A stretch of DNA of 64,000 nucleotides from Eledone cirrhosa (GCA_964016885.1 OZ024743.1:29078001-29142000); one strand, 5' to 3'; positions 9,993 through 64,000 are shown, counted from the stretch's first letter. Made by a program: numbers and translations. The notes: generated by a model not told the origin, from the sequence alone.

Positions 9993-10040
<48 letters not shown>

Positions 10041-10072
10041 AATAACAAAGAACGCCTATAGCATATGCATAT

Positions 10073-10130
10073 CTTTACTTGCTAACATTGTTTCATCCGC
10101 ACTATAAGTGGGACTCATCAGAGCATAAAG
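10073..10130 (-). ncRNA. Minimal type I hammerhead ribozyme (PLE pLTR)
   Basis: TGCT-CTGATGA-GTCC..GGAT-GAAAC-AAT-GTT-AGCA on the minus strand. Confidence 0.8.
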
Positions 10131-10733
10131 GTTAATTACATACCACACAAGCAATAACAAATCCAAGACATTGAAGAATGAAAAATAATAGAAGATAAAG
10201 GATATTAAGGAAGTAAAAGTAAAAATAAGAATAAAAATAAAAATAAAAATAAAAATAAAAATAAAAATAATAAAATAAACAATGAAAAATAAGGGGTGCT
10301 ATCAGTCACAGTTGGGCGGGGTGCTGTCAACATATAGTTACATACAAGCATACACATGGATAAGAGAACAGACAAGAGTAGATAAGATAGATAGGATTAG
10401 GTAAGAGTAGGTAAAAAATAGGTGAAAAACAGACTTATAATATATATAAGAAAATATAAAAAAATATAACAAACTTACATATAAAATATAAAATATAAAA
10501 TATACAGATAATAGTGATACAGGGTAAGGAATGAAATAAAATAATATAAAATTAAAATTAAAATTATATAAAATAGAACATAATATAATATAATCATAAA
10601 ATAAGATAAAATAAGGTAAACTAAAATAAAATAAAATAGACTAAAGTAAAATAATATAATATAAGATATAATTAAATGTAATTAAATAAATAAATAAATA
10701 AAATTAAATAAATAAATAAAATTAAAATTAAAA

Positions 10734-10773
<40 letters not shown>

Positions 10774-13140
10774 GTAAATAAATAAATAAATGAAATTAAA
10801 TAAATAAATAAATAAAATTAAATAAAATGAAATGAAATAAAATAAAATAAAATAAAGTAAATTGAGATAAGATATATATTTTTTTAGAATATATCTCTTG
10901 AATATATCAGGGGCCCACGAAGGCACTAAGTGTCACAGTTATCTGTATCACTTGACCATTTTTTTAGAATATATTTCTTGAAAATATCAGGGGCCCACGA
11001 AGGCACTAAGTGTCACAGTCACCAGTATCACTTGACCATTGCAAGGCAATGGAGGCGTCCCAGGTTGGGCAGTCTCAAAAGTTCACTCGAAAGTCACGGG
11101 TGTGCATTCACACAGTTGAGCGGTGGGGTAATCACAAACCGGTTCACACCCGGGCAGGAGTCCAATGGTCAAACAGAGGTGCATCGAAGGAAGGTAGGAG
11201 AATTCACGTGCAGTAGCAAGAGGCCGAAAGCAAGGTGCAGGCGGGTTAGCCAAAGCAAGCAGACACAGTTGGAGCGCATACAAAAGATATATAAAAAGAC
11301 AAAATATATATAAAAAATAGCTTCAAGAGCCATGAAGTCACCGCATTGGGACATCACAAGATTATACACACCAATATGTTCAGCACGTATATGCACATAT
11401 ACACACCACATGCATATGCAGAGACGGTATACATATATATATATTTTTTTTATATACAGACATATACAACCACCTACACCCATACACATATAAATGTATA
11501 CACAGACACACACGCACACACACACAGCGTAGGACACCCGGGTCAAAGCTGATATTAAACACAGAAATACCACATTAGGCAAGACCCACCACCACGGATA
11601 ATACATTCAAAATAAATACATACGATGAGATGTAGTAAAATAAAATTGAATTCCTACGGAGATAATCATGTCCGCACGTGCCATTGCCCGATTTAAGTGT
11701 ACACAGACCGTTAGTAACTACGGAGGGCTATCGGGGCCAAAACGTTACTTTCGGGATCATAACAACGACCGTCAATATATGGAAGGCCGATCGTGCTAGA
11801 AAGACTACAACCCCGGGCAAGAGCTCCCAGAAGTCAGCCTGTAGATCTTAAACCACAGAATAGGAGGGCAACACGTACATGCGCCACGTATCTACTGCTT
11901 ACGGCGAGATGGCACAGGTCCGCCCACAGTTACAGGCTAAATTTCTATTAGTGCAGCCTATATCACAGTACACGCTCTACATAGATACATTACATCACAA
12001 CTCATGCGCATACAGAGGTACAGATCCACAAGATACACGTCAGGATAGACCCACCAATGCACCAATGGTGGGTAGGCGAGCGTGGATGGGTTACATCCGC
12101 TGTGCCAAACAGGGGTGCTTATTAACATACACACCCACTCACCTGTACACCCCAATATCCAGATCAATATCCTCCCGCAGGCATACGTATACACTCACCG
12201 ACTCATATACATAGAAGACAAACAATAGGAGACAGTTACACACAATCAGAGACAGTTACACAAGATAGCCCAACTGGAGAAATAAGGAAGTGCTAGCTAA
12301 TAGGTTTAAAGTAGAAGAAAGAGCTTAATATTCGGTGGGGGCAAGAGGAAAATATTTCTGACTTTCTATTTAGTAGAGGGCATTTAGCAAATATAATAGA
12401 GTGGGATTCGGCAAGGCATAGGTTACATACTCTATTATGAGGAGTATATGGATGGGATTTAGCAACCTGCCGCCAAGTAAGTGTGTAATGTGTTCGTGCA
12501 TTTTTTAAATTGTGGACGTACGCTGCCAAGGAGGTGGAGTTCCTAAGTTTATTATGTCTAAAAGTGCACTGGTGAGAGTTAAACCTGGTCTTAAAGGGGG
12601 TGGAGGTTGATCCTATATAGGTTTTAGTGGACGCCGTAGTTACCACATCACACGCATAAACTATGTTTCTAACAAGGCAGAAACCATTCAGGGGGCAGCC
12701 TGAAGCCCTTCTACAGTTACAACTTCTGGTGATGCTATTCTCAGAATGATCACCACTTTCGAGTGAACTTTTGAGACTGCCCAACCTGGGACGCCTCCAT
12801 TGCCTTGCAATGGTCAAGTGATACTGGTGACTGTGACACTTAGTGCCTTCGTGGGCCCCTGATATTTTCAAGAAATATATTCTAAAAAAATGGTCAAGTG
12901 ATACAGATAACTGTGACACTTAGTGCCTTCGTGGGCCCCTGATATATTCAAGAGATATATTCTAAAAAAATATATATCTTATCTCAATTTACTTTATTTT
13001 ATTTTATTTTATTTTATTTCATTTCATTTTATTTAATTTTATTTATTTATTTATTTTATTTCATTTATTTATTTATTTACTTATTTATTTATTTATTTAT
13101 TTATTTAATTTTAATTTTAATTTTATTTATTTATTTAATT

Positions 13141-13176
<36 letters not shown>

Positions 13177-13795
13177 TTACATTTAATTATATCTTATATT
13201 ATATTATTTTACTTTAGTCTATTTTATTTTATTTTAGTTTACCTTATTTTATCTTATTTTATGATTATATTATATTATGTTCTATTTTATATAATTTTAA
13301 TTTTAATTTTATATTATTTTATTTCATTCCTTACCCTGTATCACTATTATCTGTATATTTTATATTTTATATTTTATATGTAAGTTTGTTATATTTTTTT
13401 ATATATATTATAAGTCTGTTTTTCACCTATTTTTTACCTACTCTTACCTAATCCTATCTATCTTATCTACTCTTGTCTGTTCTCTTATCCATGTGTATGC
13501 TTGTATGTAACTATATGTTGACAGCACCCCGCCCAACTGTGACTGATAGCACCCCTTATTTTTCATTGTTTATTTTATTATTTTTATTTTTATTTTTATT
13601 TTTATTTTTATTTTTATTTTTATTTTTATTTTTATTTTTATTTTTATTTTTATTTTTATTTTTATTTTTATTTTTATTTTTATTTTTATTTTTATTCTTA
13701 TTTTTACTTTTACTTCCTTAATATCCTTTATCTTCTATTATTTTTCATTCTTCAATGTCTTGGATTTGTTATTGCTTGTGTGGTATGTAATTAAC

Positions 13796-13853
13796 CTTTA
13801 TGCTCTGATGAGTCCCACTTATAGTGCGGATGAAACAATGTTAGCAAGTAAAG
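13796..13853 (+). ncRNA. Minimal type I hammerhead ribozyme (inverted pLTR copy)
   Basis: CTTTATGCT CTGATGA GTCC CACTTATAGTGC GGAT GAAAC AAT GTT AGCAAGTAAAG. Confidence 0.8.
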
Positions 13854-13980
13854 ATATGCATATGCTATAGGCGTTCTTTGTTATTTATTATATCACGGCT
13901 CTGTCCTCAGACATCGAGCTAACCTTATACTGCCTGCTGGATAAGTGGAGTGTTATACACCCCTGATCCTCTCCCTAGTA

Positions 13981-16980: not shown

Positions 16981-17064
<84 letters not shown>

Positions 17065-17067
<3 letters not shown>

Positions 17068-17515
17068 AAAGTTTTATTTAAAATTGTTGGGTTACAACGA
17101 GTAAATATTTTATAACTGATATAAAAGCACTCAACAAGTTTTGGAGTATTTTACGATATTAAACAAATGGAAACTACATTTATAAAACCATATTTATTTC
17201 ATTATATATATTTCAGGGATATCATATTAAAAATATGGTATGCCCTCTTCAGACAAAATACAATATATAGACAGTTTTATAAATAAATTTGACATACCTT
17301 AGAATTTCCAACTTCCATTTAAGTTGTTACTACCGTAACAACTTTTTAAATGGAAGTTGTAAATTCTAAGGTATGTCAAATTTATTTATAAAACTGTCTA
17401 TATATTGTATTTTGTCTGAAGAGGGCATACCATATTTTTAATATGATATCCCTGAAATATATATAATGAAATAAATATGGTTTTATAAATGTAGTTTCCA
17501 TTTGTTTAATATCGT
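17065..17515. mobile_element. Fold-back pLTR-like element (family F) with two hammerheads
   Basis: Arms about 17154-17320 and 17346-17515. HHR at 17195-17260 (-) and 17408-17473 (+): TATTTTGT CTGAAGA GGG..CCCT GAAA TAT AT ATA ATGAAATA. Confidence 0.75.
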
Positions 17516-17537
17516 ATATATATATAAATATATATAT

Positions 17538-17883
17538 ATTAGAAAGTGAGGTTTTTTTTACAAAATGAAAAATAACCGAGGTGTCCTACACGAGTGAAAG
17601 TATAAAGAAAAAGAGATGAAATCGAAAATGCAACTGGAGTCTTATTTTTTTAAAAAATATATATATTTATTTGGTTCCTTTACCGGTTTCGCAGTTCTTC
17701 TGCTTTTCAAAAGGTGAGTTGAGATGGAGGGTCTGTGGTTTTTCTCAAAAAACCACAGACCCTCCATCTCAACTCACCTTTTGAAAAGCAGAAGAACTGC
17801 GAAACCGGTAAAGGAACCAAATAAATATATATATTTTTAAAAAAAATAAGACTCCAGTTGCATTTTCGATTTCATCTCTTTTT

Positions 17884-17889: not shown

Positions 17890-17969
<80 letters not shown>

Positions 17970-18110
17970 ATTAGAATACTGGAGCGTGTTGGAGTTAAAC
18001 ACCCTCTTCGTATTATAGAAATGACAGTAAAAGGTATAGCTCAATGCAGTTAAACAGAGCCAAAAAATTAAGAGTAAAACAAAGAATCCTTTAATACATC
18101 AAAAGTTTTT

Positions 18111-18155
18111 ATTAGCCGACAATGTTTCGTCCTATTAAGGACTCATCAGGGCAAT
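18111..18155 (-). ncRNA. Minimal type I hammerhead (GUC)
   Basis: ATTGCC CTGATGA GTCC TTAATA GGAC GAAAC ATT GTC GGCTAAT. Confidence 0.9.
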
Positions 18156-21100
18156 CAAAACAACAAGAAGTAATATCGGCAGATACAAGCCGGAAACTCT
18201 GAAGAATATGGAGTGTACATACACTAAAGTCTTACAAAAATATATGATAATAAAAATGAAAATAAAAATAAAAATAATAAAAATATATAATAATAAGAAT
18301 AACTAAGGATGTAGATAACATTAAGAACCATATTACAAATATAGTCCAAAGCAACTAACCTAAATCTAAACAAATTTGGTTATATAGAGCAGGAATTATA
18401 TATAACACAATGCAATAAACATAATACATTATAATAATATACCTTTACCAACATTAAAATTACAAATTAAAAATCAAAAGGTACAATATATACATGTATA
18501 TATGTGCGCACACACACACATATATAACAATACACACATCTATGATCAACTACACAAATTAAGCCCTATTAGAAGTTTGAATATAAAAATAAGCATGATA
18601 AGAGTGAAAATAATACCAATACATCTACCCAATATACATGAGGCAATAATATGATATAATTACAAGAGACACATATAATAAATAATAAACAATAAAATTA
18701 TATAATTCAATATAATATAATAGATAATCCCCGGTTAATTTACAGAAACAATATAGATGTCACAATAAAATACAATGATAATACGTAAACAGTGTACTAA
18801 CATTTACCATAAACAATGTATACAAATCGATTCATACTGGGTTACAGAGTAAATGAGGAAAAATAAATTATATAATACTCAAAAAAACACTATAATGGTA
18901 CTGTAAAAATGATGATGGTACAGAAAAAAATATATACAGACATCTTACATGATATGTAAAGTCTAAATATCATAATGTTACATATAATGAACAGTAAGTA
19001 ATAAGGATCAATATTACAATATTACAAGAATACAGACATCTTACATGATATATAAAGTTTAAATGTCATAATGTTACATATAATGAACAGTAAGTAATAA
19101 GGATCAATATTACAATACAATATAATATAATATATTATAAATTGACATAAAATAATATATAAATACTTATAATTTCAAGGTTAGTAGACAGACATATGTG
19201 GATGTGTAAGCAAAGCCAGACAGTGAATAGTAAATAGAATATAGAATAAAATAAATAAATAAATATAATCAACCGGAAATTACAAAACAAAAGCAAATAT
19301 ATACACACTAAGGCCTCACATGCGGTTAAGAAATTAGGTAAACACTAAGGAAAACAATCATTTTAATTGACTCAAAACCCTATTTGATAAATTAATATTA
19401 AAAATATCAAACCTATCCAATAAGGTAGTATAATATTAGCTGTAGTTTAAGTCATTAAAGTTTATAAACTTTAATGTTTCGTTACAAATGTTTACAAAAA
19501 GGAATGAAAATTTTTTAAAATCATATACATAACGATATCTAAAAAACTGACTTAAGTAGAATTAAGGTAGGCTAATAGGGACAGAAATGAAGAAATATAT
19601 GGAGGATGCAAAGAGGCATAAAATATAGTCGATATACTATAATAAATAATAGAAAGGAGTGTAACAGAGGGGGGAGTTAAATATAATCATAGTCAATCTG
19701 GAGGGGTTGACAATAAGTTTATGTGCGCAGGGGGGGGGGGGGTTGTCCAAAGATGAATCTGAATAAAATTAGAAATAAAAATAGAATTAAAAATAAAATT
19801 AATAATAAAAATAAAAATAAAGATAATAATAGAATAACGTAAGTGGCGTAAAGTGTGTAATCTTATGTATATTAACAAGGTGTAATAGTGAAAACATAGA
19901 TATGGTACAGTAGCCAAATGATTATGAGAGCTAGAATGAAGAGTCATCAAAAACCAATGGTAATAATGATGATAACAATAATGTTGGCAAACAAAAGAAC
20001 CTAAACTAAAAACTAAGTAATGGAATATATCTGCTAATGGGTACAATTTGTACTACTAGAACGTTTGGGTTTATAATAAAAATAAGAATTAGAAATGGCG
20101 TGGGGGCAAGAAGAGAATATCTCAGACTTTCTATTAAGTAAGGATACGCTAGAGAAAATAATAGAGTGTGTCTCAAGTATACAGAGATTACAAAACTTAC
20201 TATGTGTAGAAAGGTGGTTAGAGTGTGCTACTAAACGCCAGTTAAGGCTATATGGTATATAAGCTCCCTTAAGATCCCAGATATAAACCTAGTCTTAAAA
20301 GTGTTTGAAGTAGATCCTATATACGTTCTATTAGAGGAATTAGTTATAACTTCGCAAGCGTAGACAATGTTCTTAGAAAGGCAGTTACCGTTTAGAGGGC
20401 AGTTAGCACTCACTCTACAATTGCACTTCCGGGTGTTATTGGTTGGCTCAAGTGGTGATGTATTACACGTAGGACTTCTATTAGATAAGGACTGTTCTGG
20501 TGGTAAAGCATTGTCAGATCCGTTCAGACTAGTAGTATGTAGAGAGGAGAATCCATCCCTAATTTTCCTATTATTAGTGCTAGCTAAATGAGAACTAATA
20601 TTAGGGGTGGTAGAGAATGAGAGTTTAATAACATTTTTATTAAAAATACCATGGTATTTATGAGAAGGGGGGACATTTTTCTCTAAGATAGTGAAGAAAG
20701 ACCTAGGGATATTAGTTGATACATCCTGATTATATGGCGGGTTGAAATAAGTATTTAATCGCCTTCTATTTTTATTTTTATTCTTACCGACCCTACCTCT
20801 ATCAAATGTCCCACCGTCGAGACTAGGGTTACTATCAGGATTAGTTGAAGCCACATTCATAGAATCAGCCATAATTTCGTTATGTCTATTATAGTTTCTA
20901 CCTCCAGTAGATCTGCTGTTGTCCGGAATCTCTTCAAGAGGATTAGGGCCAATGATAGGATCAGTAGGAGCAACATTATCAGAATAAGATCCAGCAAAAC
21001 CAACACCAATGCGTGAGCGCACAGGGGGTTCAACTTGTCTCCTAGAGGTATTATATTTGCTATTACGAGTCCGGTGGGTTAACTTATGGGTGGGTTCAGA

Positions 21101-21225
21101 TACACCTATATAAATTCTACGGTTACTATATTTGCTACTCCCATTCATGGCCATGTTATGTGATATAATGTTATTATTATTAAGAGTAAGCGGAGTATCT
21201 GCCGATATTACTTCTTGTTGTTTTG

Positions 21226-21270
21226 ATTGCCCTGATGAGTCCTTAATAGGACGAAACATTGTCGGCTAAT
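21226..21270 (+). ncRNA. Minimal type I hammerhead (inverted copy)
   Basis: Same motif on the plus strand. Confidence 0.9.
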
Positions 21271-21842
21271 AAAAACTTTTGATGTATTAAAGGATTCTTT
21301 GTTTTACTCTCTTAATATATATATATATATATATATATTTTAATATATATTTTTATGTGCATTTGGTGTATACATTCGTATGCGTGCGGGTACAGGCGTT
21401 GCGTGGGTTCTGTATGTGCGTTCGGGTTTGTTTGTTTTTTGTGTACGTGCGTGTTTTTGTATACCTATGGCGAGTGTTTTCGCGTATGCTAGTGTATGTA
21501 CGTATTTGGATGCGTGTATGTATTTATTTAATTTCAGTTACCTCTGTATTTTATTTACTTTATTCTTAACTCTGAAGCCGAGAATCATTCGGTTTCCTAG
21601 TTAGAATGTTAGACTACGACTTCCTTTATACCATAAACGTGGTTTTGTCTTTGCGCGTAATTATTTTTCTCCGCTCCAAATAATGACGTATTATATTCGT
21701 TTTTTCCCGTTCTTTGCCTGAGAACGTTTCTACGAACCAAAGTATCGTCTTACTGTCTTCCTCCGGCTGCAACGTTTTTTGAAATATTCACTTCTGCGTT
21801 CACAGATTGACTTTGTTAGTTTCAGAAGATCCCGATATTATA

Positions 21843-22180
21843 TACGATATTAACAAATGGAAACTATATTTATAAAACCATATTTATTTCATTATACATA
21901 TTTCAAGGACACCAAGTTAAATTATGGTGTGCTTTCATCAGATAAAATATAATATAGATCAGTTTTATAAATAAATATTGACATACCCTTAAAGAATGCA
22001 ACCATTACTGTTGGAAGCTCCCGGATAGCTCTACCTCACTGCTTGGCAGGCTTATCGAGAGCCCTCCTGCTTCTCATTGCGTGGCCATTTCATATTTTTA
22101 CTCCAAATATTTGTTGAGTGCTTTATATCAGTTATAAAAATATTTGCTTGTTGTATCCCAACAATTTAAATAGAACTTTT
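21843..22180. mobile_element. Family F pLTR-like element, diverged, with hammerhead at 21885-21949 (-)
   Basis: Homologous to 17065-17515. Core CTGATGA. Confidence 0.7.
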
Positions 22181-22221
<41 letters not shown>

Positions 22222-36502: not shown

Positions 36503-36690
36503 ATAACGAAGGAAATGTGGTAAGGAACCAGGTGGACCATAACGCACCAAAGTACTCAATACTTGGGGTAGTAGAGTGGATAATAGGAACCAGTAAGACC
36601 CCGACAGCTGAGCTCAAGCCGCTTCGACGGCTAATTCTCAGAATTAGCCGTCGAAACGGCTTGAGCTCAGCTGTCGGGGTCTTACTGGTT

Positions 36691-36780
<90 letters not shown>

Positions 36781-37163: not shown

Positions 37164-37170
<7 letters not shown>
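34272..37170 (+). mobile_element. Penelope-like element (Hydra-clade-like): RT + GIY-YIG pseudogene and start of 3' UTR
   Basis: MGSYDSADVCDLVG, GLYRDDGL, RKRKIIWFTPPF, KIFNRNVVKISYSC, CSCRKPEE.PLQGKC. Several stops and frameshifts. Coding ends at about 36165. Confidence 0.92.
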
Positions 37171-37194
<24 letters not shown>

Positions 37195-37198
<4 letters not shown>

Positions 37199-37999
37199 AA
37201 TTAAGTTAAAAATGTACATCTACATATGCATACTGAAATACTAGTGTGCATATGAATACACACACGTATACATATGTAGATGTAACAAGTCTTTCACTGA
37301 TTGCTTTACTGTGAGCAACCCAGCTATTCTGTATGTAAACACACAGACAAACCGGTTTTTAGAGTCATACTGGTTTTCGAGGAAACACCTTCCCTCTATT
37401 CTCCAGAAAGCCAGAAAAGGAATATTGAACTAGTTTCGTTGTTGTTACAACTCATTAGAAATATTTACCTATCTACCGGCCTTTCTGGAGAATTGTAAAA
37501 GCACATATCGTTATATGCTTTTTCTATGAAAATTAGTAGTGGGCAGGCTAATTTGCATAGAGTGTGAGTACGCACCGGTTCAGCGGAGACGATAAAAACA
37601 AATAACGAAGCGAAATTAAATTTCGTTTCGTTTGTAACTCACTTTTGTATGACTGACGCTTAAACAATTAAGTTAAAAATGTACATCTACATATGCATAC
37701 TGAAATACTAGTGTGCATATGAATACACACACGTATACATATGTAGATGTAACAAGTCTTTCACTGGTTGCTTTACTGTGAGCAACCCAGCTATTCTGTA
37801 TGTAAACACACAGACAAACCGGTTTTTAGAGTCATACTGGTTTTCGAGGAAACACCTTCCCTCTATTCTCCAGAAAGCCAGACAGGGAATATTGAACTAG
37901 TTTCGTTCTTGTTACAACTCATCAGCAATATTTACCTATCTACCGGCCTTTCTGGAGAATTGTAAAAGCACATATCGTTATATGCTTTTTCTATGAAAA

Positions 38000-38002
<3 letters not shown>
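37195..38002 (-). mobile_element. Retrozyme-like element: 467-bp non-coding unit x1.7 in (TA)n
   Basis: Direct repeat with period 467. HHR at 37888-37932 (intact) and 37421-37465 (core mutated). Confidence 0.8.
37888..37932 (-). ncRNA. Minimal type I hammerhead with palindromic stem III
   Basis: AATATTG CTGATGA GTT GTAACAAG AAC GAAAC TA GTT CAATATT. Confidence 0.85.
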
Positions 38003-38083
<81 letters not shown>

Positions 38084-38480
38084 CAAGGTCTAGCAAATAG
38101 AGAAAATGTTTTAAAATAATTTTAAAAATTCGCAGTACTTACTATATGTGCCTTTACCGCGGTTTCATGCTCCAGAATAAATGGAAAATCCAAGGGGATT
38201 TCCATATTTCCATTGAGAAGGGAGCAATCTTGAGAGGGCTCTTCTCTCTCGGAGAATATAAAATTCCCGAGTTCAAATCACAAACTGACGCCATACAAAA
38301 CCGTTTCGAAATGAGAGCGAATGATGGAAGAAATAATTGTGTCTGGTGCCGTGTGCAAAGACAAAAGGCAGAGTGGACAGGTCAATGTCCTGCCACTCGA
38401 AATAGCAGCAGTCCAAACAGCCAAAATTTTATCTCTACCTTAGGGGAGATTAATAATAATAAAGTATGAATTCCTACATG

Positions 38481-38512
<32 letters not shown>

Positions 38513-38516
<4 letters not shown>

Positions 38517-39154
38517 AATAGAATGAAACGAAATTTCATTTCTCACTCTTAGTACGGCACTTACTTAAATTTAAGTATGTATGTATACGTACATACATAT
38601 ATGTATACAGACGTACAGTAGTATGTATATATATACATACGTGCACACATATATATATATATATATGCACGTATCGGTTTACCGAACATTTATTATAATG
38701 CTCGGTTTGTTTGTTTGTAAACAAACAAACAGCCCGAATTACGCCGTATAGTGTTTAGGCAACCACGTCACCTTTTTGTTCAACACTGACACAGGAACGA
38801 TGTACTAGTTTCAAGCCTATTAGCCATCGTCAGCATCGTATACCTTCCTGCCAGATGGCCGAACGTCTGAAAGTATATACTTTCCTTATGCATATCAACG
38901 GCTGAGCAGCCTAATTTGCATATCGAGTGAGTTCAGTCGACCGGGCACACCGAAAACGATAAATGGAATAGAATGAAACGAAATTTCATTTCTCACTCTT
39001 AGTACGGCACTTAGTTAAATTTATGTATGTATGTATACGTACATACATATATGTATACAGACGTACAGTAGTATGTATATATATACATACATGCACACAT
39101 ATATATATGCACGTATCGGTTTACCGAACATTTATTATAATGCTCGGTTTGTTT
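38513..39154 (-). mobile_element. Retrozyme-like element: 450-bp unit x1.4 in (TA)n
   Basis: 38513-38715 is repeated from 38963. One HHR. A related fragment is inverted at about 40275-40330. Confidence 0.8.
38792..38850 (-). ncRNA. Minimal type I hammerhead
   Basis: CAGGAA..CGATG CTGACGA TGGCTAATAGGCTT GAAAC TA GTA CATCG TTCCTG. Stem II imperfect. Confidence 0.75.
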
Positions 39155-39477
39155 ATATATATTTGTTTATATATATATATATGTTTATACATATATATAT
39201 ATGTGTGTGTGTGCGTGTGTATGTGCGTGCGTATGTACGTGTACATATGCGTATGTGTGTATGTATGTATATTTTTATATATAAGTAATTATTTATATAT
39301 ATGTGTGTATGTGGTTGTATTTATTTTATCTCATGTATATGTGTGTGTGAATGTATATATATATTTTTATATATGTATATACACCTACATTTGTGTATAT
39401 GTACCTATACATGTGGTTGAGAGTATATGCGTGCGTATGTGTGTGTATGCATGTGAATATATATATGTGTGTATTGA

Positions 39478-39544
<67 letters not shown>

Positions 39545-39547
39545 ATT

Positions 39548-40110
39548 CACAGGAATCAAAGTTATGTTCAAACCATTTATTAGCTTACAATTGTTTCATC
39601 CAAACCGAGGCTTGGAGCATTATTTAATGTTTGTATACATTCATAACCTCCTTTCCAACGCAAGATACATATGTATATATTGATGCAATACAGATACATA
39701 TGTGTATATTGATGCAATATATACATATGTATATATTGATGCATTATCGTCTTGCATTATCTACGTTAACTGCCGATGTTGTATTTTAATTTTAATTTTG
39801 CTTTGATTCTGTTTTAATATGATTTTTATTTTTGAATTTAAATTGCCATTCAGAAATAAAATAATATATGTCACCCCACTGTGCGTCAATATATACATAT
39901 GTATCTGTATGTTTCTTGCGTTGGAAAGGAGGTCATGAATGTATACAAACATTAAATAATGCTCCGAAGATGCCAAGCCTCGGTTGGGATGAAACAATTG
40001 TAAGCTAATAAATGGTTTGAACATAACTTTGATTCCTGTGTGTTCTATATAACTGCTCTGTAAAACAACCGATGTTATTACATTGAGCTATTTATCTTAC
40101 TGGTAATAAG
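39548..40110. mobile_element. Fold-back pLTR-like element with degenerate hammerhead (39961-40005, +)
   Basis: Arms about 39548-39685 and 39885-40040. GCT CCGAAGA..GAAAC AATT GTA AGC. The left arm lacks the core. Confidence 0.65.
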
Positions 40111-40325
40111 GTAGTAATAAATTACTGTCTTTAACTGTTTAGGGTTTAAAATATATATAACTATAAAAAGTTTTAGTATATACATAACCATAAATAGTAT
40201 CCTTAATACTATATATATATATATATATATATGTATATACTTAACTGTGTATATGTTTGTACTGTATATATATATGTCAGCCGTAAGAGTGAGAAATGAA
40301 ATGAAATTTCGTTTCATTCTTTTCC

Positions 40326-40395
<70 letters not shown>

Positions 40396-40398
<3 letters not shown>

Positions 40399-40818
40399 AT
40401 TAAACAAATGGAAACTATATTTATAAAACCATATTTATTTCATTATACATATTTCGGGGATACCATATTAAAAATATGGCATGCCTTCTTCAGATAAAAT
40501 ACAATATATAAACATTTTATAAATAATTTTGACGTACCATAAATATTGACCAACCGTTATGTAAAAAGCTGGTTTGGTCAATATTTATGGTACGTCAAAA
40601 TTATTTATAAAATGTTTATATATCGTATTTTATCTGAAGAAGGCATGCCATATTTTTAATATGGTATCCCCGAAATATGTATAATGAAATAAATATGGTT
40701 TTATAAATATAGTTTCCATTTGTTTAATATCGTATATCTACTCCAAAACTTGTCGAGTGCTTTATATCAGTTATAAAATATTTACTTGTTGTAACCCAAC
40801 AATTTTATATAAAACTTT

Positions 40819-40821
<3 letters not shown>
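40396..40821. mobile_element. Family F fold-back element with hammerheads at 40436-40501 (-) and 40626-40691 (+)
   Basis: Palindrome centred at about 40563, homologous to 17065-17515. Confidence 0.78.
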
Positions 40822-40860
<39 letters not shown>

Positions 40861-40865
<5 letters not shown>

Positions 40866-42127
40866 GAATAATCGAGTATCGAAAAATCGGCGCACGAGTT
40901 CACGATAAACAAAATTCGAGATGAGCGGCAGAGGGCTCTATAATTCAAATAAATTAGAGCTATAACTATCGTTAAAATACCGTCACACGTAGAATATGTC
41001 TACAATCAACCAAATAACCGAAAAGTTCGATATGGAAGATTCGGGACACTCAGATAAATTATCAATAAATCAATAAATGAAATGAATGTAAAATGCATAC
41101 CCGGACCCACTAGAGAGATGGAATATCTAGCTTCTTGGGTTTCTGTAAATCCTTAAACCGTCATCTATCAGCTCATATAAAAATATAAGCCTTACAGATA
41201 ATCGGGGGACTGGAGTTACTTCATCAACGAGCTTCGTCCGAATGGATAAAAAGATAAGACCCAGGCTAAAAATACGCACATGGATTTCAGCAAGGGAGAT
41301 AACCTTTATATCCGCAAAAATATTCGGAAAAATGTGGCAAAAACACATATCGAATAAGAGTGCTCAATAGACATGTTAAAATAAACAGGGGCTATTCATC
41401 ATTTAATAGAATCGACAAAAAATGAACAATAAAATTAACTGGTCAATAGCTAAGTCTAGAGCTAAATATAGTAGAATAATCGAGTATCGAAAAATCGGCG
41501 CACGAGTTCACGATAAACAAAATTCGAGATGAGCGGCAGAGGGCTCTATAATTCAAATAAATTAGAGCTATAACTATCGTTAAAATACCGTCACACGTAG
41601 AATATGTCTACAATCAACCAAATAACCGAAAAGTTCGATATGGAAGATTCGGGACACTCAGATAAATTATCAATAAATCAATAAATGAAATGAATGTAAA
41701 ATGCATACCCGGACCCACTAGAGAGATGGAATATCTAGCTTCTTGGGTTTCTGTAAATCCTTAAACCGTCATCTATCAGCTCATATAAAAATATAAGCCT
41801 TACAGATAATCGGGGGACTGGAGTTACTTCATCAACGAGCTTCGTCCGAATGGATAAAAAGATAAGACCCAGGCTAAAAATACGCACATGGATTTCAGCA
41901 AGGGAGATAACCTTTATATCCGCAAAAATATTCGGAAAAATGTGGCAAAAACACATATCGAATAAGAGTGCTCAATAGACATGTTAAAATAAACAGGGGC
42001 TATTCATCATTTAATAGAATCGACAAAAAATGAACAATAAAATTAACTGGTCAATAGCTAAGTCTAGAGCTAAATATAGTAGAATAATCGAGTATCGAAA
42101 AATCGGCGCACGAGTTCACGATAAACA

Positions 42128-42130
<3 letters not shown>
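40861..42130 (-). mobile_element. Retrozyme-like element: 608-bp unit x2.1 in (TA)n
   Basis: Apparently identical tandem copies starting at 40861, 41469 and 42077. Candidate extended HHR at 41099-41232 and 41707-41840. Confidence 0.7.
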
Positions 42131-42168
<38 letters not shown>

Positions 42169-42364
42169 TTTAGTACAGCATTGACGAAGCTTTAGTATAC
42201 GGCCAATCTAGCGTATGTGCATAATCGGTCTGTAGCTTTAGCACTCGGATGAGGTAAGACCCCAGAGTAATAACATTACGTTCAGACAGCTTAGCAAATC
42301 AGATATAGCTGTCGGCAGTCCAACCGCATTACCAGAGCAACGAAAATACAGGACCCAGGAAAAG

Positions 42365-42414
<50 letters not shown>

Positions 42415-42435
42415 GTATAAAATCAATACAATATT

Positions 42436-42509
42436 ATTACCTCATTACCAGAGGTTTCCCGAATGAGGCGAATACGAAATAAACGACTTCATTCGTTCGT
42501 CAGACGAGG

Positions 42510-42513
<4 letters not shown>
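42436..42513 (-). ncRNA. Type I hammerhead with extended stem II
   Basis: ATTGCCTCGT CTGACGA ACGAATGA..TCATTCGG GAAAC CTCTG GTA ATGAGGTAAT. Confidence 0.8.
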
Positions 42514-42557
<44 letters not shown>

Positions 42558-42896
42558 TATTTTGTTTTGTGCATTTGCTTACCACGTGTGTTTGTTTATT
42601 TATTTTTATTTGTGTTTTTTTTCCTCTTTCGTATCGCTGTCAACTTGCTAATTTTTTATTTTTATATTTGACTTTATTTTTTACTTTTATTTATTTATTA
42701 TTTTGATTTTATGTATATGGATTTATCTTTGCCAGTTTATGTGACTGCTTATTTTAGTATATGCGCATGGTCGAGTGTGTATATGTTTGTTTATTTATTT
42801 TTACTTATTTTTATAATTATGTGCGTGTGTGTATATATATGTATGTATGTGTGTATATATATATATGCGTATTTATATATATATATATATATATAT

Positions 42897-43515
42897 GTAA
42901 GTAAAAAATTTTTAAAAAGTTTTTTTTAAAAAATATTTTCTTATTTTACGTCCTTTATATTATTGTTCTGCATTCTCCTGCATTGAACCACCTAGGTACT
43001 ATGACATAACCTGTGTATTTTCTAGCATGGGCGTGCATCTGTGCGCTTATGTTAGTTGATATATTAAATTATCTATATTTATCTCCAAATCACTGATTTG
43101 TCGAGCAAACTTGCCAAAACCACTTCTAAAGAAATTTTTTTGGGGGTGTTAGTAGGCGTCAGTCATCTTACCATCCCATTCCTTCTAACTAGCCTCTGTG
43201 TCACGTGATTGATTCTTTAGAATCGGCCATTTGACTTGAAGCAGTGAGAATTTCGGTACATAGAATCCAGTCCTCGCAAGCTGTTCGATCTACCGAATTA
43301 TTATTATTTTTATATGAGCCGCCAGTGTCCGCGCATTGCCTGGAGACTTAACTGAGAATAGACTCCCTGATGACGCAATGAATTCTCGACAGTTGGATTA
43401 CGTAACTGTCTTTATCCCATTGCAGAAACTAATTAGTTGGAGTGAAAATTTAAGTAAGTAAAAAATTAAAAAAAAAAAAAAAAAAAATATATTTTCTTAT
43501 TTTACGTCCTTTATA
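42897..43515 (+). mobile_element. Retrozyme-like element: 557-bp unit with about 60-bp terminal redundancy
   Basis: GTAAGTAAAAAA...TATTTTCTTATTTTACGTCCTTTATA at 42897 and 43454. HHR just before the second copy. Confidence 0.75.
43362..43443 (+). ncRNA. Type I hammerhead, extended stem II, palindromic stem III
   Basis: ACTCC CTGATGA CGCAATG..CATTGCA GAAAC TAATTA GTT GGAGT. Confidence 0.85.
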
Positions 43516-43539
43516 CACACTCGACCATGCGCATATACT

Positions 43540-43571
<32 letters not shown>

Positions 43572-44107: not shown

Positions 44108-44173
<66 letters not shown>

Positions 44174-44180
<7 letters not shown>

Positions 44181-44337
44181 TAAAATAACAGATTAAAGTT
44201 TAAGCAAAGAATCGCCGCTTTCACCCTTAACGGGATCTTCTGAAACTAACAAAGTCTTTGTTAGTTTCAGACGATGCCGTTAAGGGTGAAAGCAGCGATT
44301 CTTTGCTTAAACTTTAATCTGTTATTTTAATAAATAT
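44174..44337. repeat. Near-perfect palindrome next to (TA)n, probably a pLTR fold-back
   Basis: Arms of about 80 bp. HHR-like CAGA(A/C)GA TCCC GTTAA GGGT GAAA. Related piece at about 21809-21835. Confidence 0.6.
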
Positions 44338-44420
44338 TTGTTCTACGGTTCTTATATATTTGATATATATTTATCCTTATCGAGCCCTCTTTGGATTTTA
44401 GTCTTCAAATTTATTATTAT

Positions 44421-61320: not shown

Positions 61321-61774
61321 ATAACATAGACAAATAGATAAATAGACACATAGCTAGCTAAATGCACTGTTCTAGACTGCAGTAAGAGATGTGTCCCCAT
61401 CACCCTCACACAAACATCAAAACATTAGATTACTTATTAGTGCTTACTTTCCTCTCGCGAATATCTGTAAAATGTGTGCGTGTGTGTGGTATATGTGTGT
61501 GTGCGTTTCTATGTATGTATGTATGTATGTATGTATGTATGTATGTATGTATGTATGTATGTATGTATGTATGTTCTTCTGGTTTTATAATTTCACAAAG
61601 TTTTACCAATAGAGAGAGAGTCGGTTTCTCATTGGAATTTACACAGCATCAACTAGGTAGGTATGTATGCATGCATGTGTAGATATGGATGTTATTGTAT
61701 GTTTGGATGTGTATATTTTGAGTTGTATGTGTGCATGTGTATATGATTTACATCTGTATATGTGTATATGCAGT

Positions 61775-62440
61775 TATTAGATGCAACATTTTTGGAATGT
61801 CTTAGATATTTTTACTGTTCCATTAATGGATTGTATTTGTAATTTCTTAACTAGTTGTGTTCTTTCTGTTCCTGTAGCTTCTCAAGATTTGTATTGAGGC
61901 AGTTCCTGACATATCCCAGTGCCCCAATAATCACAGGCATAAATCTGAAGGTGTAATCAGGGTGGAGTATCTGCAGATTTCTCATCAGTTCTGCATAAAT
62001 GTTCTCCTTTTCACTAATCTTTGATATTATATTAGCATCTGCTGGGCAGCTAATTTCCACTACTGTGCATGGTTTCTTCTCCCTGTCCCATATCATAATA
62101 TCTGGTCTGTTATGCCTGCATTTTATTGGGGTTTTTACTGGAACATTCCACCAGTACTCTTTCATATTATGTACATGGATGTCTTCCACATTGCTGTAGC
62201 TTTTAATGTGTTTATTATCGGCGCTATCTTTTTTACGAACTGCATTGTACAGTGTTTTGGCCACTTCATCATGACTCATAGGTAGATAGTACCGCGATGA
62301 CATCTTTGGACAGCTGCTGATGACATGGGTGATATCCTCGATGTTAGTTCTGCAGAGTCTGCACTTGTTGTCACATCTAGGTGTTTTGCCTGCATCCCTA
62401 TCTGTTTTGTGAATCAGGTATTTCGTGCTAATCTCCTGAT
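61775..62440 (-). mobile_element. R4/Dong-like LINE 3' end (CCHC + restriction-like endonuclease)
   Basis: CRLC...EDITHVISSCP, (R/S)HDEVAK, HNRPDIMIWD...VVEISCP, EKENIY, PVIIGALG. Confidence 0.85.
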
Positions 62441-62458
62441 ATATGTATGTATGTGTGC

Positions 62459-62489
<31 letters not shown>

Positions 62490-63207: not shown

Positions 63208-63250
<43 letters not shown>

Positions 63251-63253
<3 letters not shown>

Positions 63254-63520
63254 AAAGTTTTATTTAAAATTGTTGGGTTACAACGAGTAAATATTTTATA
63301 ACTGATATAAAAGCACTCAACAGGTTTTGGAGTAGGTTTGCGATATTAAACAAATGGAAACTATATTTATAAAACCATATTTATTTCATTATATATATTT
63401 CAGGGATATCATATTAAAAATATGGTATGCCTTCCTCAGACAAAATACAATATATAAACCGTTTTATAAATAAATTTGACATACCTTAAACATTACAACT
63501 TCCATTTAAAAAGTTGATTT
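63251..63520 (-). mobile_element. Family F pLTR-like element, HHR 63382-63447
   Basis: Homologous to 17065-17330. Core CTGAGGA. May continue into the purine-rich sequence to the window end. Confidence 0.75.
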
Positions 63521-64000
63521 GGTAGTGAAAATGTTAAGGACAGTTAGAAAGAAAGACGAAGAGAAAAAAGAAGGAAAGTGTATAGTGCTAAGGACGAAGA
63601 GAAGAAGAAAGAAAATGTATAGTGCTAAGGACAGTTAGAGAGGAATACGAAGAAGATGAAGAGATGTATGTAAAGAAAAACAACAGAGCGAGATAGAGAG
63701 AGAGAGAGATATGGGAGAGAGAAATATATATTGAGGAAGTGAAAAATGATAGGCAGCTTGTGCACAGATGATCACCGTACAAATGAGAGATTAAGAAGGG
63801 AAGGGGGTACTGTAATTATTTATTTATTTATTTATTTATTTAGTTATAGTGTTAAGGATACGGAGAGAGATAAAGAAAATAAAAATAAATAAAGAGAGGT
63901 ATAGAGAGATATAGGTGGTGGGAGAAACGAGGTAGATCGAGTAATATCTATCATACGAGGTGGGAGAGATACAGTTAAATCAGCCGATACATAAATCATG

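Follow-up and report, generated by a model that had tools for sequence, protein, structure and literature searches.

A 64,000-nucleotide stretch of the 3.0-Gb genome of Eledone cirrhosa (GCA_964016885.1, OZ024743.1:29078001-29142000; hereafter the window) carries four tandem elements, F1 to F4, between positions 37195 and 43515, each with a hammerhead ribozyme motif whose direction defines the strand of the element (Table 1). Self-BLAST and chained alignments reproduced the four modules of an initial annotation at the same places, with units of 467, 450, 608 and 557 bp and 1.73, 1.45, 2.09 and 1.11 copies, respectively; the output of Tandem Repeats Finder (TRF) lists none of them. That annotation had every module start at a (TA)n tract. 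For F1–F3, which lie on the minus strand, the left tract is the fixed 3' end, but in F4 it adjoins the truncated side and the fixed end lies at 43515. The units are non-coding, with a GC content of 35–38%. The sole open reading frame (ORF) of at least 120 amino acids that overlaps a unit is a microsatellite translation, and the reverse transcriptase plus GIY-YIG ORF of an autonomous Penelope-like element (PLE) was not found in the F1–F4 units.

Table 1. Features of F1–F4 and of smaller neighbouring pieces, numbered from the first letter of the window
Feature	Position	Strand	Details
F1 element	37195-38004	minus	467-bp unit, 1.73 units, two copies 98.0% alike
F1 ends	37195; ~38003	minus	short 3' end at 37195; 5' truncation against (TA)n at ~38003
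(TA)n target tract at fixed 3' end of F1	37168-37195
F1 tail with hairpin	37592-37661	minus	70 nt, between short and long 3' end sites
F1 octamer ATGCAAAT	37551-37558	minus	just past long 3' end site; candidate promoter element
F1 type I hammerhead, intact	37888-37932	minus	core CTGATGA at 37925; 2-bp palindromic stem III
F1 predicted cut	37895|37894	minus	GUU
F1 hammerhead, damaged first-unit copy	37421-37465	minus	core CTAATGA at 37458; stem I G>T
F2 element	38509-39154	minus	450-bp unit, 1.45 units; long 3' end at (TA)n 38483-38514
F2 octamer ATGCAAAT	38914-38921	minus	relative place as in F1
F2 type I hammerhead	38792-38850	minus	core CTGACGA at 38833; U.U at stem II base; palindromic stem III
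F2 predicted cut	38803|38802	minus	GUA
F3 element	40863-42130	minus	608-bp unit, 2.09 units, 99.85% alike
F3 single fixed 3' end	at (TA)n 40822-40862	minus
F3 variant type I hammerhead	41099-41232	minus	core TTGATGA at 41227; second copy 41707-41840
F3 predicted cut	41104|41103	minus	GUC
Stretch 3' of F3 cut	41087-41103	minus	holds 15/61 genomic 5' ends
F3 12-mer TTATCTCCCTTG	41291-41302	minus	matches the U1/U2 distal promoter element of this genome; also at 41899-41910
F4 element	42893-43515	plus	557-bp unit, 1.11 units
F4 3' ends	43515; 43082	plus	short end at 43515; long-end site at 43082
F4 type I hammerhead	43362-43443	plus	core CTGATGA at 43367; C.A at stem II base; 3-bp palindromic stem III
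F4 predicted cut	43438|43439	plus	GUU
Fifth hammerhead family, two-armed	40387-40821		cores at 40493 (-) and 40634 (+); one short, one long end
Type I hammerhead-like motif	42455-42503	minus	within 99 bp bounded by (TA)n tracts on both sides
34-bp inverted copy of 42750-42783	43512-43545	minus	between F4 3' end and next (TA)n

F1–F4 belong to dispersed families

Genome-wide searches with exact markers returned 8,604 F1 units, 15,692 F2 hammerheads, 9,169 F4 hammerheads and at least 1,163 insertion ends of F3; reversed-marker controls gave 0 matches. The closest copies of each family are 97–100% alike and lie on many contigs with different flanks, and head-to-tail arrays of the bare unit reach about 30 copies. 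The closest-copy samples, with 40 candidates scored per family, lean towards the subfamily of the window. Less biased samples were formed by the first listed pattern matches on contig C1, comprising 20 stretches for F1 (two of which overlap in one array), 60 for F3 and 40 for F4. Tabulation of the copy ends revealed variable 5' ends and fixed 3' ends, with (TA)n as the target, as the initial annotation had supposed. Both flanks of the insertions consist of (TA)n, and for this reason a target-site duplication is not legible.

The units might be thought to have arisen by local duplication or misassembly, or to be no more than the pseudo-long terminal repeats (pLTRs) of coding PLEs, and remnants of coding PLEs with similar hammerheads and two-armed (head-to-head) ends are indeed common in the window. 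Against this stand the long arrays of bare units and the spread of copies over many contigs with different flanks. In addition, matches to PLE- or Dong-like coding sequence (the queries being the window's own PLE and Dong proteins) were observed in 21 of 151 loci and none adjoins a unit, nor does any coding PLE adjoin a sampled copy. These observations largely refute such an origin, to which we give hardly any chance, and the initial view of multi-copy mobile families is borne out.

Hammerhead motifs and signs of selection

Descriptor scans located the hammerheads where the initial annotation had placed them, that of F3 to the exact base, and the palindromic stems III stand as written there. 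Each module does carry its hammerhead, but the first-unit copy of F1 is damaged, F3 departs from the canonical core and the basal pair of stem II is mismatched in F2–F4. A strict descriptor matched the second unit of F1, F2 and F4, and a relaxed descriptor was needed for F3. F1, F2 and F4 fit the canonical core (C3 U4 G5 A6 N7 G8 A9 / G12 A13 A14, A15.1-U16.1, H17), from which F3 departs in that position 3 is U in 35/35 variants and position 8 is G in 24 and A in 11. The F3 motif thus combines U3, a free N7, G or A at position 8 and A.A at the stem II base with long stems II and III. The base pair closing stem II (10.1-11.1) is present in F1 only, and the other families conserve their mismatches (U.U in F2, A.A in F3, C.A in F4). 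In a chance control, a relaxed hammerhead with equal stems appeared in 1 of 500 dinucleotide shuffles of F3. The covariance-model check that the initial annotation had in mind recognised F1, with the Rfam model HH9 (34 bits, E 2.9e-5, below the gathering score of 52) and as the only family to score, but returned nothing relevant for F3. A candidate core of F3, CTGATAGA, with which F3 had been deemed hammerhead-free, was overturned by the relaxed scan, which gave TTGATGA as the real core. The possibility of F3 as an RNA resembling that of hepatitis delta virus, a twister, a pistol or a tRNA was likewise rejected, with no match by Rfam or ARAGORN.

Comparison of genomic copies revealed that the core is intact in 145/147 F1, 43/43 F2 and 66/70 F4 units, and that the variant core pattern of F3 is present in 34/35 variants. 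The damaged core of the first F1 unit in the window is found in 1/147 F1 units. Subfamilies of F1 swap GTT/AAC to GAT/ATC in stem II, and 13/13 further copies of F2, 77–100% alike, keep the core, with one- or two-sided changes in stem I. In five subfamily copies of F4 (76–100% alike), 60/60 helix cells are paired and the loop diverges; two pairs have changed on both sides, and 2/500 shuffles of these five sequences were as good. The helices of F3 are paired in 95.4% of 522 cells (0/500 shuffles as good). Its core positions 3, 4 and 9 are invariant, position 7 is free (T 22, G 8, A 5), position 8 takes only G or A opposite U3, and RNAalifold gives the three-way junction unprompted. This covariation comprises few independent substitution events, and the two-sided changes of F3 are confined to distal stem II. 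When folded as single sequences, the hammerheads of F1 and F2 do not surpass their shuffles, which is to be expected of such minimal motifs. Judged by these conserved, covarying folds, the hammerheads of F1–F4 are under selection, and the RNA motif is probably self-cutting.

Penelope-type insertion signature of F1, F2 and F4

In F1, F2 and F4 the 5' ends are scattered; the 3' ends, which adjoin (TA)n, fall at two fixed sites per family, separated by about 70 nt in F1, 60 nt in F2 and 122 nt in F4. Many of their insertions consist of two arms joined head to head, with the inverted arm truncated at its 5' side. Hand scoring of arm pairs revealed one long and one short end in 47/49 pairs (F1 24/25, F2 12/13, F4 11/11), a count from which about 10 more two-armed loci were excluded, having an end off the stretch or at neither site. 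When 40 F4 loci were chosen by the short end alone, 24 were two-armed and the partner arm was long-ended in 24/24; the rest comprised 11 single insertions, 1 unresolved and 4 left out (a subfamily less than 80% alike). In this unbiased sample, 24/60 F4 arms are longer than one unit. Two PLE insertions of the window with GIY-YIG-like remnants (10033-13979 and 17967-21314) also have a short and a long end, and a hammerhead in each arm.

PLEs are reported to show 5' truncation, partial tandems, a tail on one end and an inverted 5' copy (PMC8557442), and in vitro a PLE protein was found to cleave both strands, to extend each of them and to begin at two internal sites (PMC11167929). The geometry of the F1, F2 and F4 insertions and its match to the tail, the inverted copy and the two-site start therefore point to Penelope-type integration, and these three families were likely inserted by a Penelope-like enzyme.

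At locus L030 (1501-2347), an F1 short-end arm is joined head to head to an F2-type long-end arm (81% alike), which suggests that one enzyme may handle both F1 and F2. F1 and F2 also have alike tail hairpins (37551-37661 and 38513-38570) and the octamer past the long end (38914-38921 in F2), and from these common parts they may be distant relatives. In the two-armed loci L239, L242, L243, L248, L263 and L180, both arms stop at one unit position, usually a short palindrome.

Units of one insertion share a haplotype

Comparison of units at shared polymorphic sites revealed that the mismatch in F1 is 1.4% between tandem units and 1.3% across arms versus 44% between loci; the same measure is 0.9 versus 36.7% in F3 and 0 versus 51% in F4 (only 3 sites), in pair counts that are dominated by long arrays and with which most loci agree. 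At locus L177 the two arms contain 6.9 and 12.9 units, of which 18 full units are identical, and three variants are private to the locus. Of the derived variants in two-armed F1 loci, 63 are confined to a single unit, 24 are common to every unit of the two arms and 3 are distributed otherwise, and none of these 90 scored variants recurs solely in register across the arms. The youngest arrays, L177 and F3 arrays of 3-5 units, have no internal variation. Units run across the predicted cut without indels in 147/150 cases for F1, 46/46 for F2, 66/66 for F3 and 72/72 for F4 (331/334 in total).

All units of an insertion share one haplotype, and therefore one monomer appears to have been copied repeatedly, likely from a circle. 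A circle read round and round would explain the haplotype pattern best. The predicted circle of F1 is strongly self-paired (z about -11, 12 shuffles), and circular RNAs have been demonstrated for mussel, coral and axolotl retrozymes (PMC7229834). Copying more than once around a circle had been proposed initially from the partial tandems. The monomer-level templating fits such a rolling-circle route, but the tandems are less telling, as coding PLEs make partial tandems too (PMC11167929). In L166, an array of at least 20 units, variants recur irregularly in several units, a sign of later turnover. In a 3.38-unit F3 array (L144:842-1452), the middle unit has about 12 clustered changes relative to both neighbours.

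Possible footprints of the predicted cut at 5' ends

The positions of arm ends were transcribed by hand from script tables. At F4 locus L239, both arms start at the predicted cut with one base between them, and at L236 the long arm (1.36 units) starts at the predicted cut without microhomology. Eleven of 60 F4 arms start within 15 nt of the cut (1.6 expected), a region that also holds a palindrome and an A/T tract. In F3, 15/61 5' ends fall in the 17 nt 3' of the cut (1.7 expected; 4/21 in the second sample alone), most of them at the foot of the extended stem I, and the end at L284 lies 1 nt from the cut. In F2, 4/47 ends lie near the cut, partly explained by the stem III palindrome. Arms that start at the predicted cut are an indirect sign of cleavage, and these footprints therefore suggest that a linear cut RNA seems to be the template at times, beside a form that is passed many times.

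F3 follows a different mode of insertion

Analysis of F3 revealed one fixed 3' end and an internal start, and an inverted arm or a second end (a one-sided tail) was found in 0/99 loci. Of these loci, 60 were chosen by the known end and 40 by the whole unit, the two choices agree, and one locus common to both samples was counted once. F3 thus has neither Penelope hallmark, and therefore the dependence on neighbouring PLEs that had been proposed for all four elements does not extend to it; for F1, F2 and F4 that proposal is upheld as regards Penelope-type integration, and a partner PLE sharing their end sequence was not found, nearby or elsewhere, among the few ends compared. F3 was likely inserted by a different, one-sided enzyme, perhaps of the LINE (long interspersed element) type. 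Contigs of two sequencing runs of unrecorded kind, aligned with the 608-bp unit, were uninformative as to strand, ends and expression.

F3 also contains the 12-mer TTATCTCCCTTG, which was matched in 0/200 shuffles and is kept in most of 19 subfamily copies. In the U1/U2 genes of this genome the distal element lies at about -260 (about -263 in U1), and in F3 it lies about 218 nt upstream of the pile-up of 5' ends; a match to the proximal element was not found in F3. A full small nuclear RNA (snRNA) promoter in the units was rejected, since only the distal element matches, in F3 alone, and the upstream regions of U1/U2 lack the octamer. Among the snRNA genes (L205-L220), U1/U2 have in common a distal TTAYYTCCCTT-like element about 260 nt upstream and a proximal TCAGT about 57 nt upstream.

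The abundant Dong-like LINE of the window was considered as a partner of F3 and dismissed, as it ends in (CATA)n and has no common end sequence. Its 3' part lies at 61574-62460 (minus strand), with 43,208 first-look candidates and close copies 92–96% alike. Some ORFs of the window are presumably of Dong/R4 and RTE affiliation.

Proposed mechanism and alternatives

In the mechanism that we propose, a tandem copy would be transcribed and the hammerhead would cut once per unit, F1 and F2 acting as a dimer. The monomers would be ligated to circles, while some cut linear RNA would persist. A PLE dimer would then cut both (TA)n strands, and reverse transcription would start once per strand, at internal sites that lie 60-120 nt from each other. 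Both complementary DNAs would run round the same template, stop at variable points and join head to head. The outcome of such two-site rolling copying of one template would be a long end on one arm, a short end on the other and units that do not differ between the arms. For F3, one internal start would produce one arm, with copying frequently halted at the cut end or at the base of the extended stem I. Taken jointly with the circle and the enzymes, the identification of F1–F4 as animal retrozymes, each a family of mobile, non-coding repeats with a hammerhead and with (TA)n as the insertion target, is the best explanation that we can offer, and on balance a probable one.

Several observations weigh against this explanation. 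GUU cut sites and U3.G8 cores go with lower activity. F1 and F4 are predicted to be cut after GUU, F2–F4 have the stem II base mismatch and the F3 of the window has U3.G8, so activity may drop. Exact-cut starts in F4 come from 2 independent loci only among 60 arms (P about 0.02), and 0/71 F1 arms end within 5 nt of the cut. The haplotype comparison for F2 rests on 2 shared sites only. Raw divergence is 0.75% in register versus 0.55-0.59% out of register, an order that is reversed without L178 (0.73 versus about 0.93%). A few insertions mix templates (L025, and L030 with its F1 and F2-type arms), and the haplotype pattern would look no different if the template were a linear transcript of a young, homogeneous array. 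Comparison with the few PLE and Dong ends available from the window and the fetched loci revealed no partner PLE with the same end sequence. Eight of nine Xenopus retrozyme dimers failed to cleave, and a PLE hammerhead was dispensable for insertion in vitro (PMC11167929).

Part of this evidence would suit a Penelope-type mobilisation from uncut or partly cut linear multimers of young homogeneous arrays, in which circles would be a by-product at most. In vitro, insertion proceeds normally with hammerhead mutants and unprocessed RNA is the main substrate (PMC11167929), the cores look weak, and the long arm of L236 ends at the cut after 1.36 units, as a linear dimer would. However, linear templates lose sequence in each round and need a way to regain units, and L177 would require a 6-kb uncut transcript of identical units. 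In-register inherited variants number 0 among the 90 scored in F1, and the core is kept in subfamilies only 76–85% alike, which leads us to regard the linear multimer as rather improbable. Arrays could also grow after insertion, from partial tandems of one unit and a fraction, by unequal exchange as in satellites, which is the route preferred in a 2026 preprint discussed below. The irregular repeated variants of L166 are of the expected kind, but both inverted arms are often multi-unit with random partial ends, the youngest arrays are internally invariant, 24 of the 60 unbiased F4 arms exceed one unit and the first partial tandem is left unexplained; we consider this route very improbable as the main source of the arrays.

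For F3, the choice lies between the one-sided enzyme and a PLE with a single start site, the 5' pile-up then being a transcription start driven by an snRNA-type element. F3 has the (TA)n target, internal start and partial tandem of the other families, and its U1/U2-like distal element upstream of the pile-up is kept in most subfamilies. This combination is to be set against the 99 loci lacking an inverted arm or second end, the different distance of the U1 element, the missing proximal match and the position of the pile-up, which falls at the cut and at the base of the extended stem I. A PLE as the mover of F3 is unlikely in our view, if still a serious contender. A bolder version of the favoured account, which we put forward only tentatively, distinguishes two retrozyme classes. 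F1, F2 and F4 would result from a Penelope dimer rolling round one circle from both sides of the break, and F3, with its U3.G8 hammerhead and a captured snRNA enhancer, would be moved by a non-Penelope enzyme such as an R4/Dong-type LINE. If this is true, a Penelope dimer on a circle would explain tandem, inverted and tailed Penelope insertions generally, and retrozymes would not be tied to Penelope.

Neighbouring elements

Two-armed hammerhead elements inserted in (TA)n abound in this region. The initial list of hammerhead elements was right for the four modules but omitted two pieces inside the same interval, at 40387-40821 and 42455-42503. Relatives of the former, which represents a fifth family, were observed at 17024-17539, 21835-22221, 63210-63550 and other loci. 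No further copy of the latter was found among the fetched loci, and the 34-bp inverted copy that flanks F4 is absent from other F4 loci. Short fold-back elements of other repeat families are also located in (TA)n (36506-36695, 39542-40046 and 44139-44420). Among the fetched loci, counting those that overlap, 39 contain the first of these elements and 26 the last. Of 40 F3 loci, 5 have a member of another of the four families no more than 6 kb away. With this proportion and one common target, a functional cluster was ruled out; the clumping likely reflects the common (TA)n targeting, with four young copies in 6 kb as an extreme case.

Comparison with known systems

F1–F4 share with the animal non-LTR (long terminal repeat) retrozymes described in PMC7229834 non-coding tandem type I hammerhead units of similar GC content, dispersal in thousands of copies and, in F1, a strongly self-paired predicted circle, and the U.U at the stem II base of F2 is as in axolotl HHR_Amex2 (PMC7229834). 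The units, known here from the genome only, are longer than the 170-400 nt invertebrate circles of that paper, and the stems III of F1 and F2 are of the minimal PLE type, unlike those of its retrozymes (PMC7229834). The initial annotation described the units as large, but their sizes are nothing out of the ordinary, with published families spanning 51-972 bp (bioRxiv 10.64898/2026.07.22.740005). A 2020 review held that the mobilising machinery is not deducible from any conserved motif (PMC7761336), whereas the insertion ends of F1, F2 and F4 point to such machinery. The preprint by Li, Clavereau and Pollet (bioRxiv 10.64898/2026.07.22.740005) reaches for retrozymes the conclusion that we reach for F1, F2 and F4, namely that they are non-autonomous PLE derivatives. 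It argues from pLTR homology and joint occurrence in vertebrates, insects and a single coral and suggests local array growth, and a term search of its main text found no mollusc and no analysis of tails or inverted arms. Retrozymes, their size range and the link to Penelope are therefore already published (PMC7229834; bioRxiv 10.64898/2026.07.22.740005). No description of these families or of this insertion evidence was found in the literature covered, a search that did not extend to Repbase and Dfam, to subscription journals or to the supplementary files of these two papers, and the word 'ribozyme' is absent from the passages available of an Octopus vulgaris repeat annotation (PMC13282606).

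The F3 core would fall outside canonical descriptors. The U3-A8 covariation, present in 11/35 F3 variants, is a known active natural variant (PMC3088659), whereas 24/35 variants, including the youngest and that of the window, combine U3.G8 with the A.A stem II base, and PMC3088659 rejected hammerhead candidates mispaired at 10.1-11.1. Such families are probably under-counted, because three of the four hammerheads break standard search rules.

How retrozymes enter genomes, and how Penelope makes tandem, inverted and tailed insertions, are the open questions that this system serves. The young families provide thousands of insertions with readable ends and haplotypes, so that template form and start sites can be scored genome-wide, and F3 provides a natural hammerhead variant and a retrozyme that seemingly uses another enzyme. 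If all four prove to be ordinary retrozymes, they are a useful extension to a new lineage and not a new class.

Endonuclease-bearing (EN+) PLEs, as described in PMC8557442 and PMC11167929, likewise have AT-rich or (TA)n targets, an internal start of reverse transcription, partial tandems and a tail on one end. F1, F2 and F4 differ from them in having no ORF and in tails of 60-120 nt as opposed to 30-40 nt (about 95-105 nt in the PLE remnants of the window), and F3 in being without tail and inversion. Non-autonomous Chlamys elements such as MRC1 (PMC8557442) are also non-coding PLE partners with multicopy head-to-tail insertions; their clade is without canonical hammerheads, and MRC1-type elements resemble the 3' end of their partner (PMC8557442), a match not found for F1–F4. 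On the genomic evidence, F1, F2 and F4 appear to be new animal retrozymes that are ordinary in kind, for which the evidence of PLE-type insertion from one monomer is unusually direct, and F3 appears to be a variant both in its ribozyme core and in its mode of insertion.

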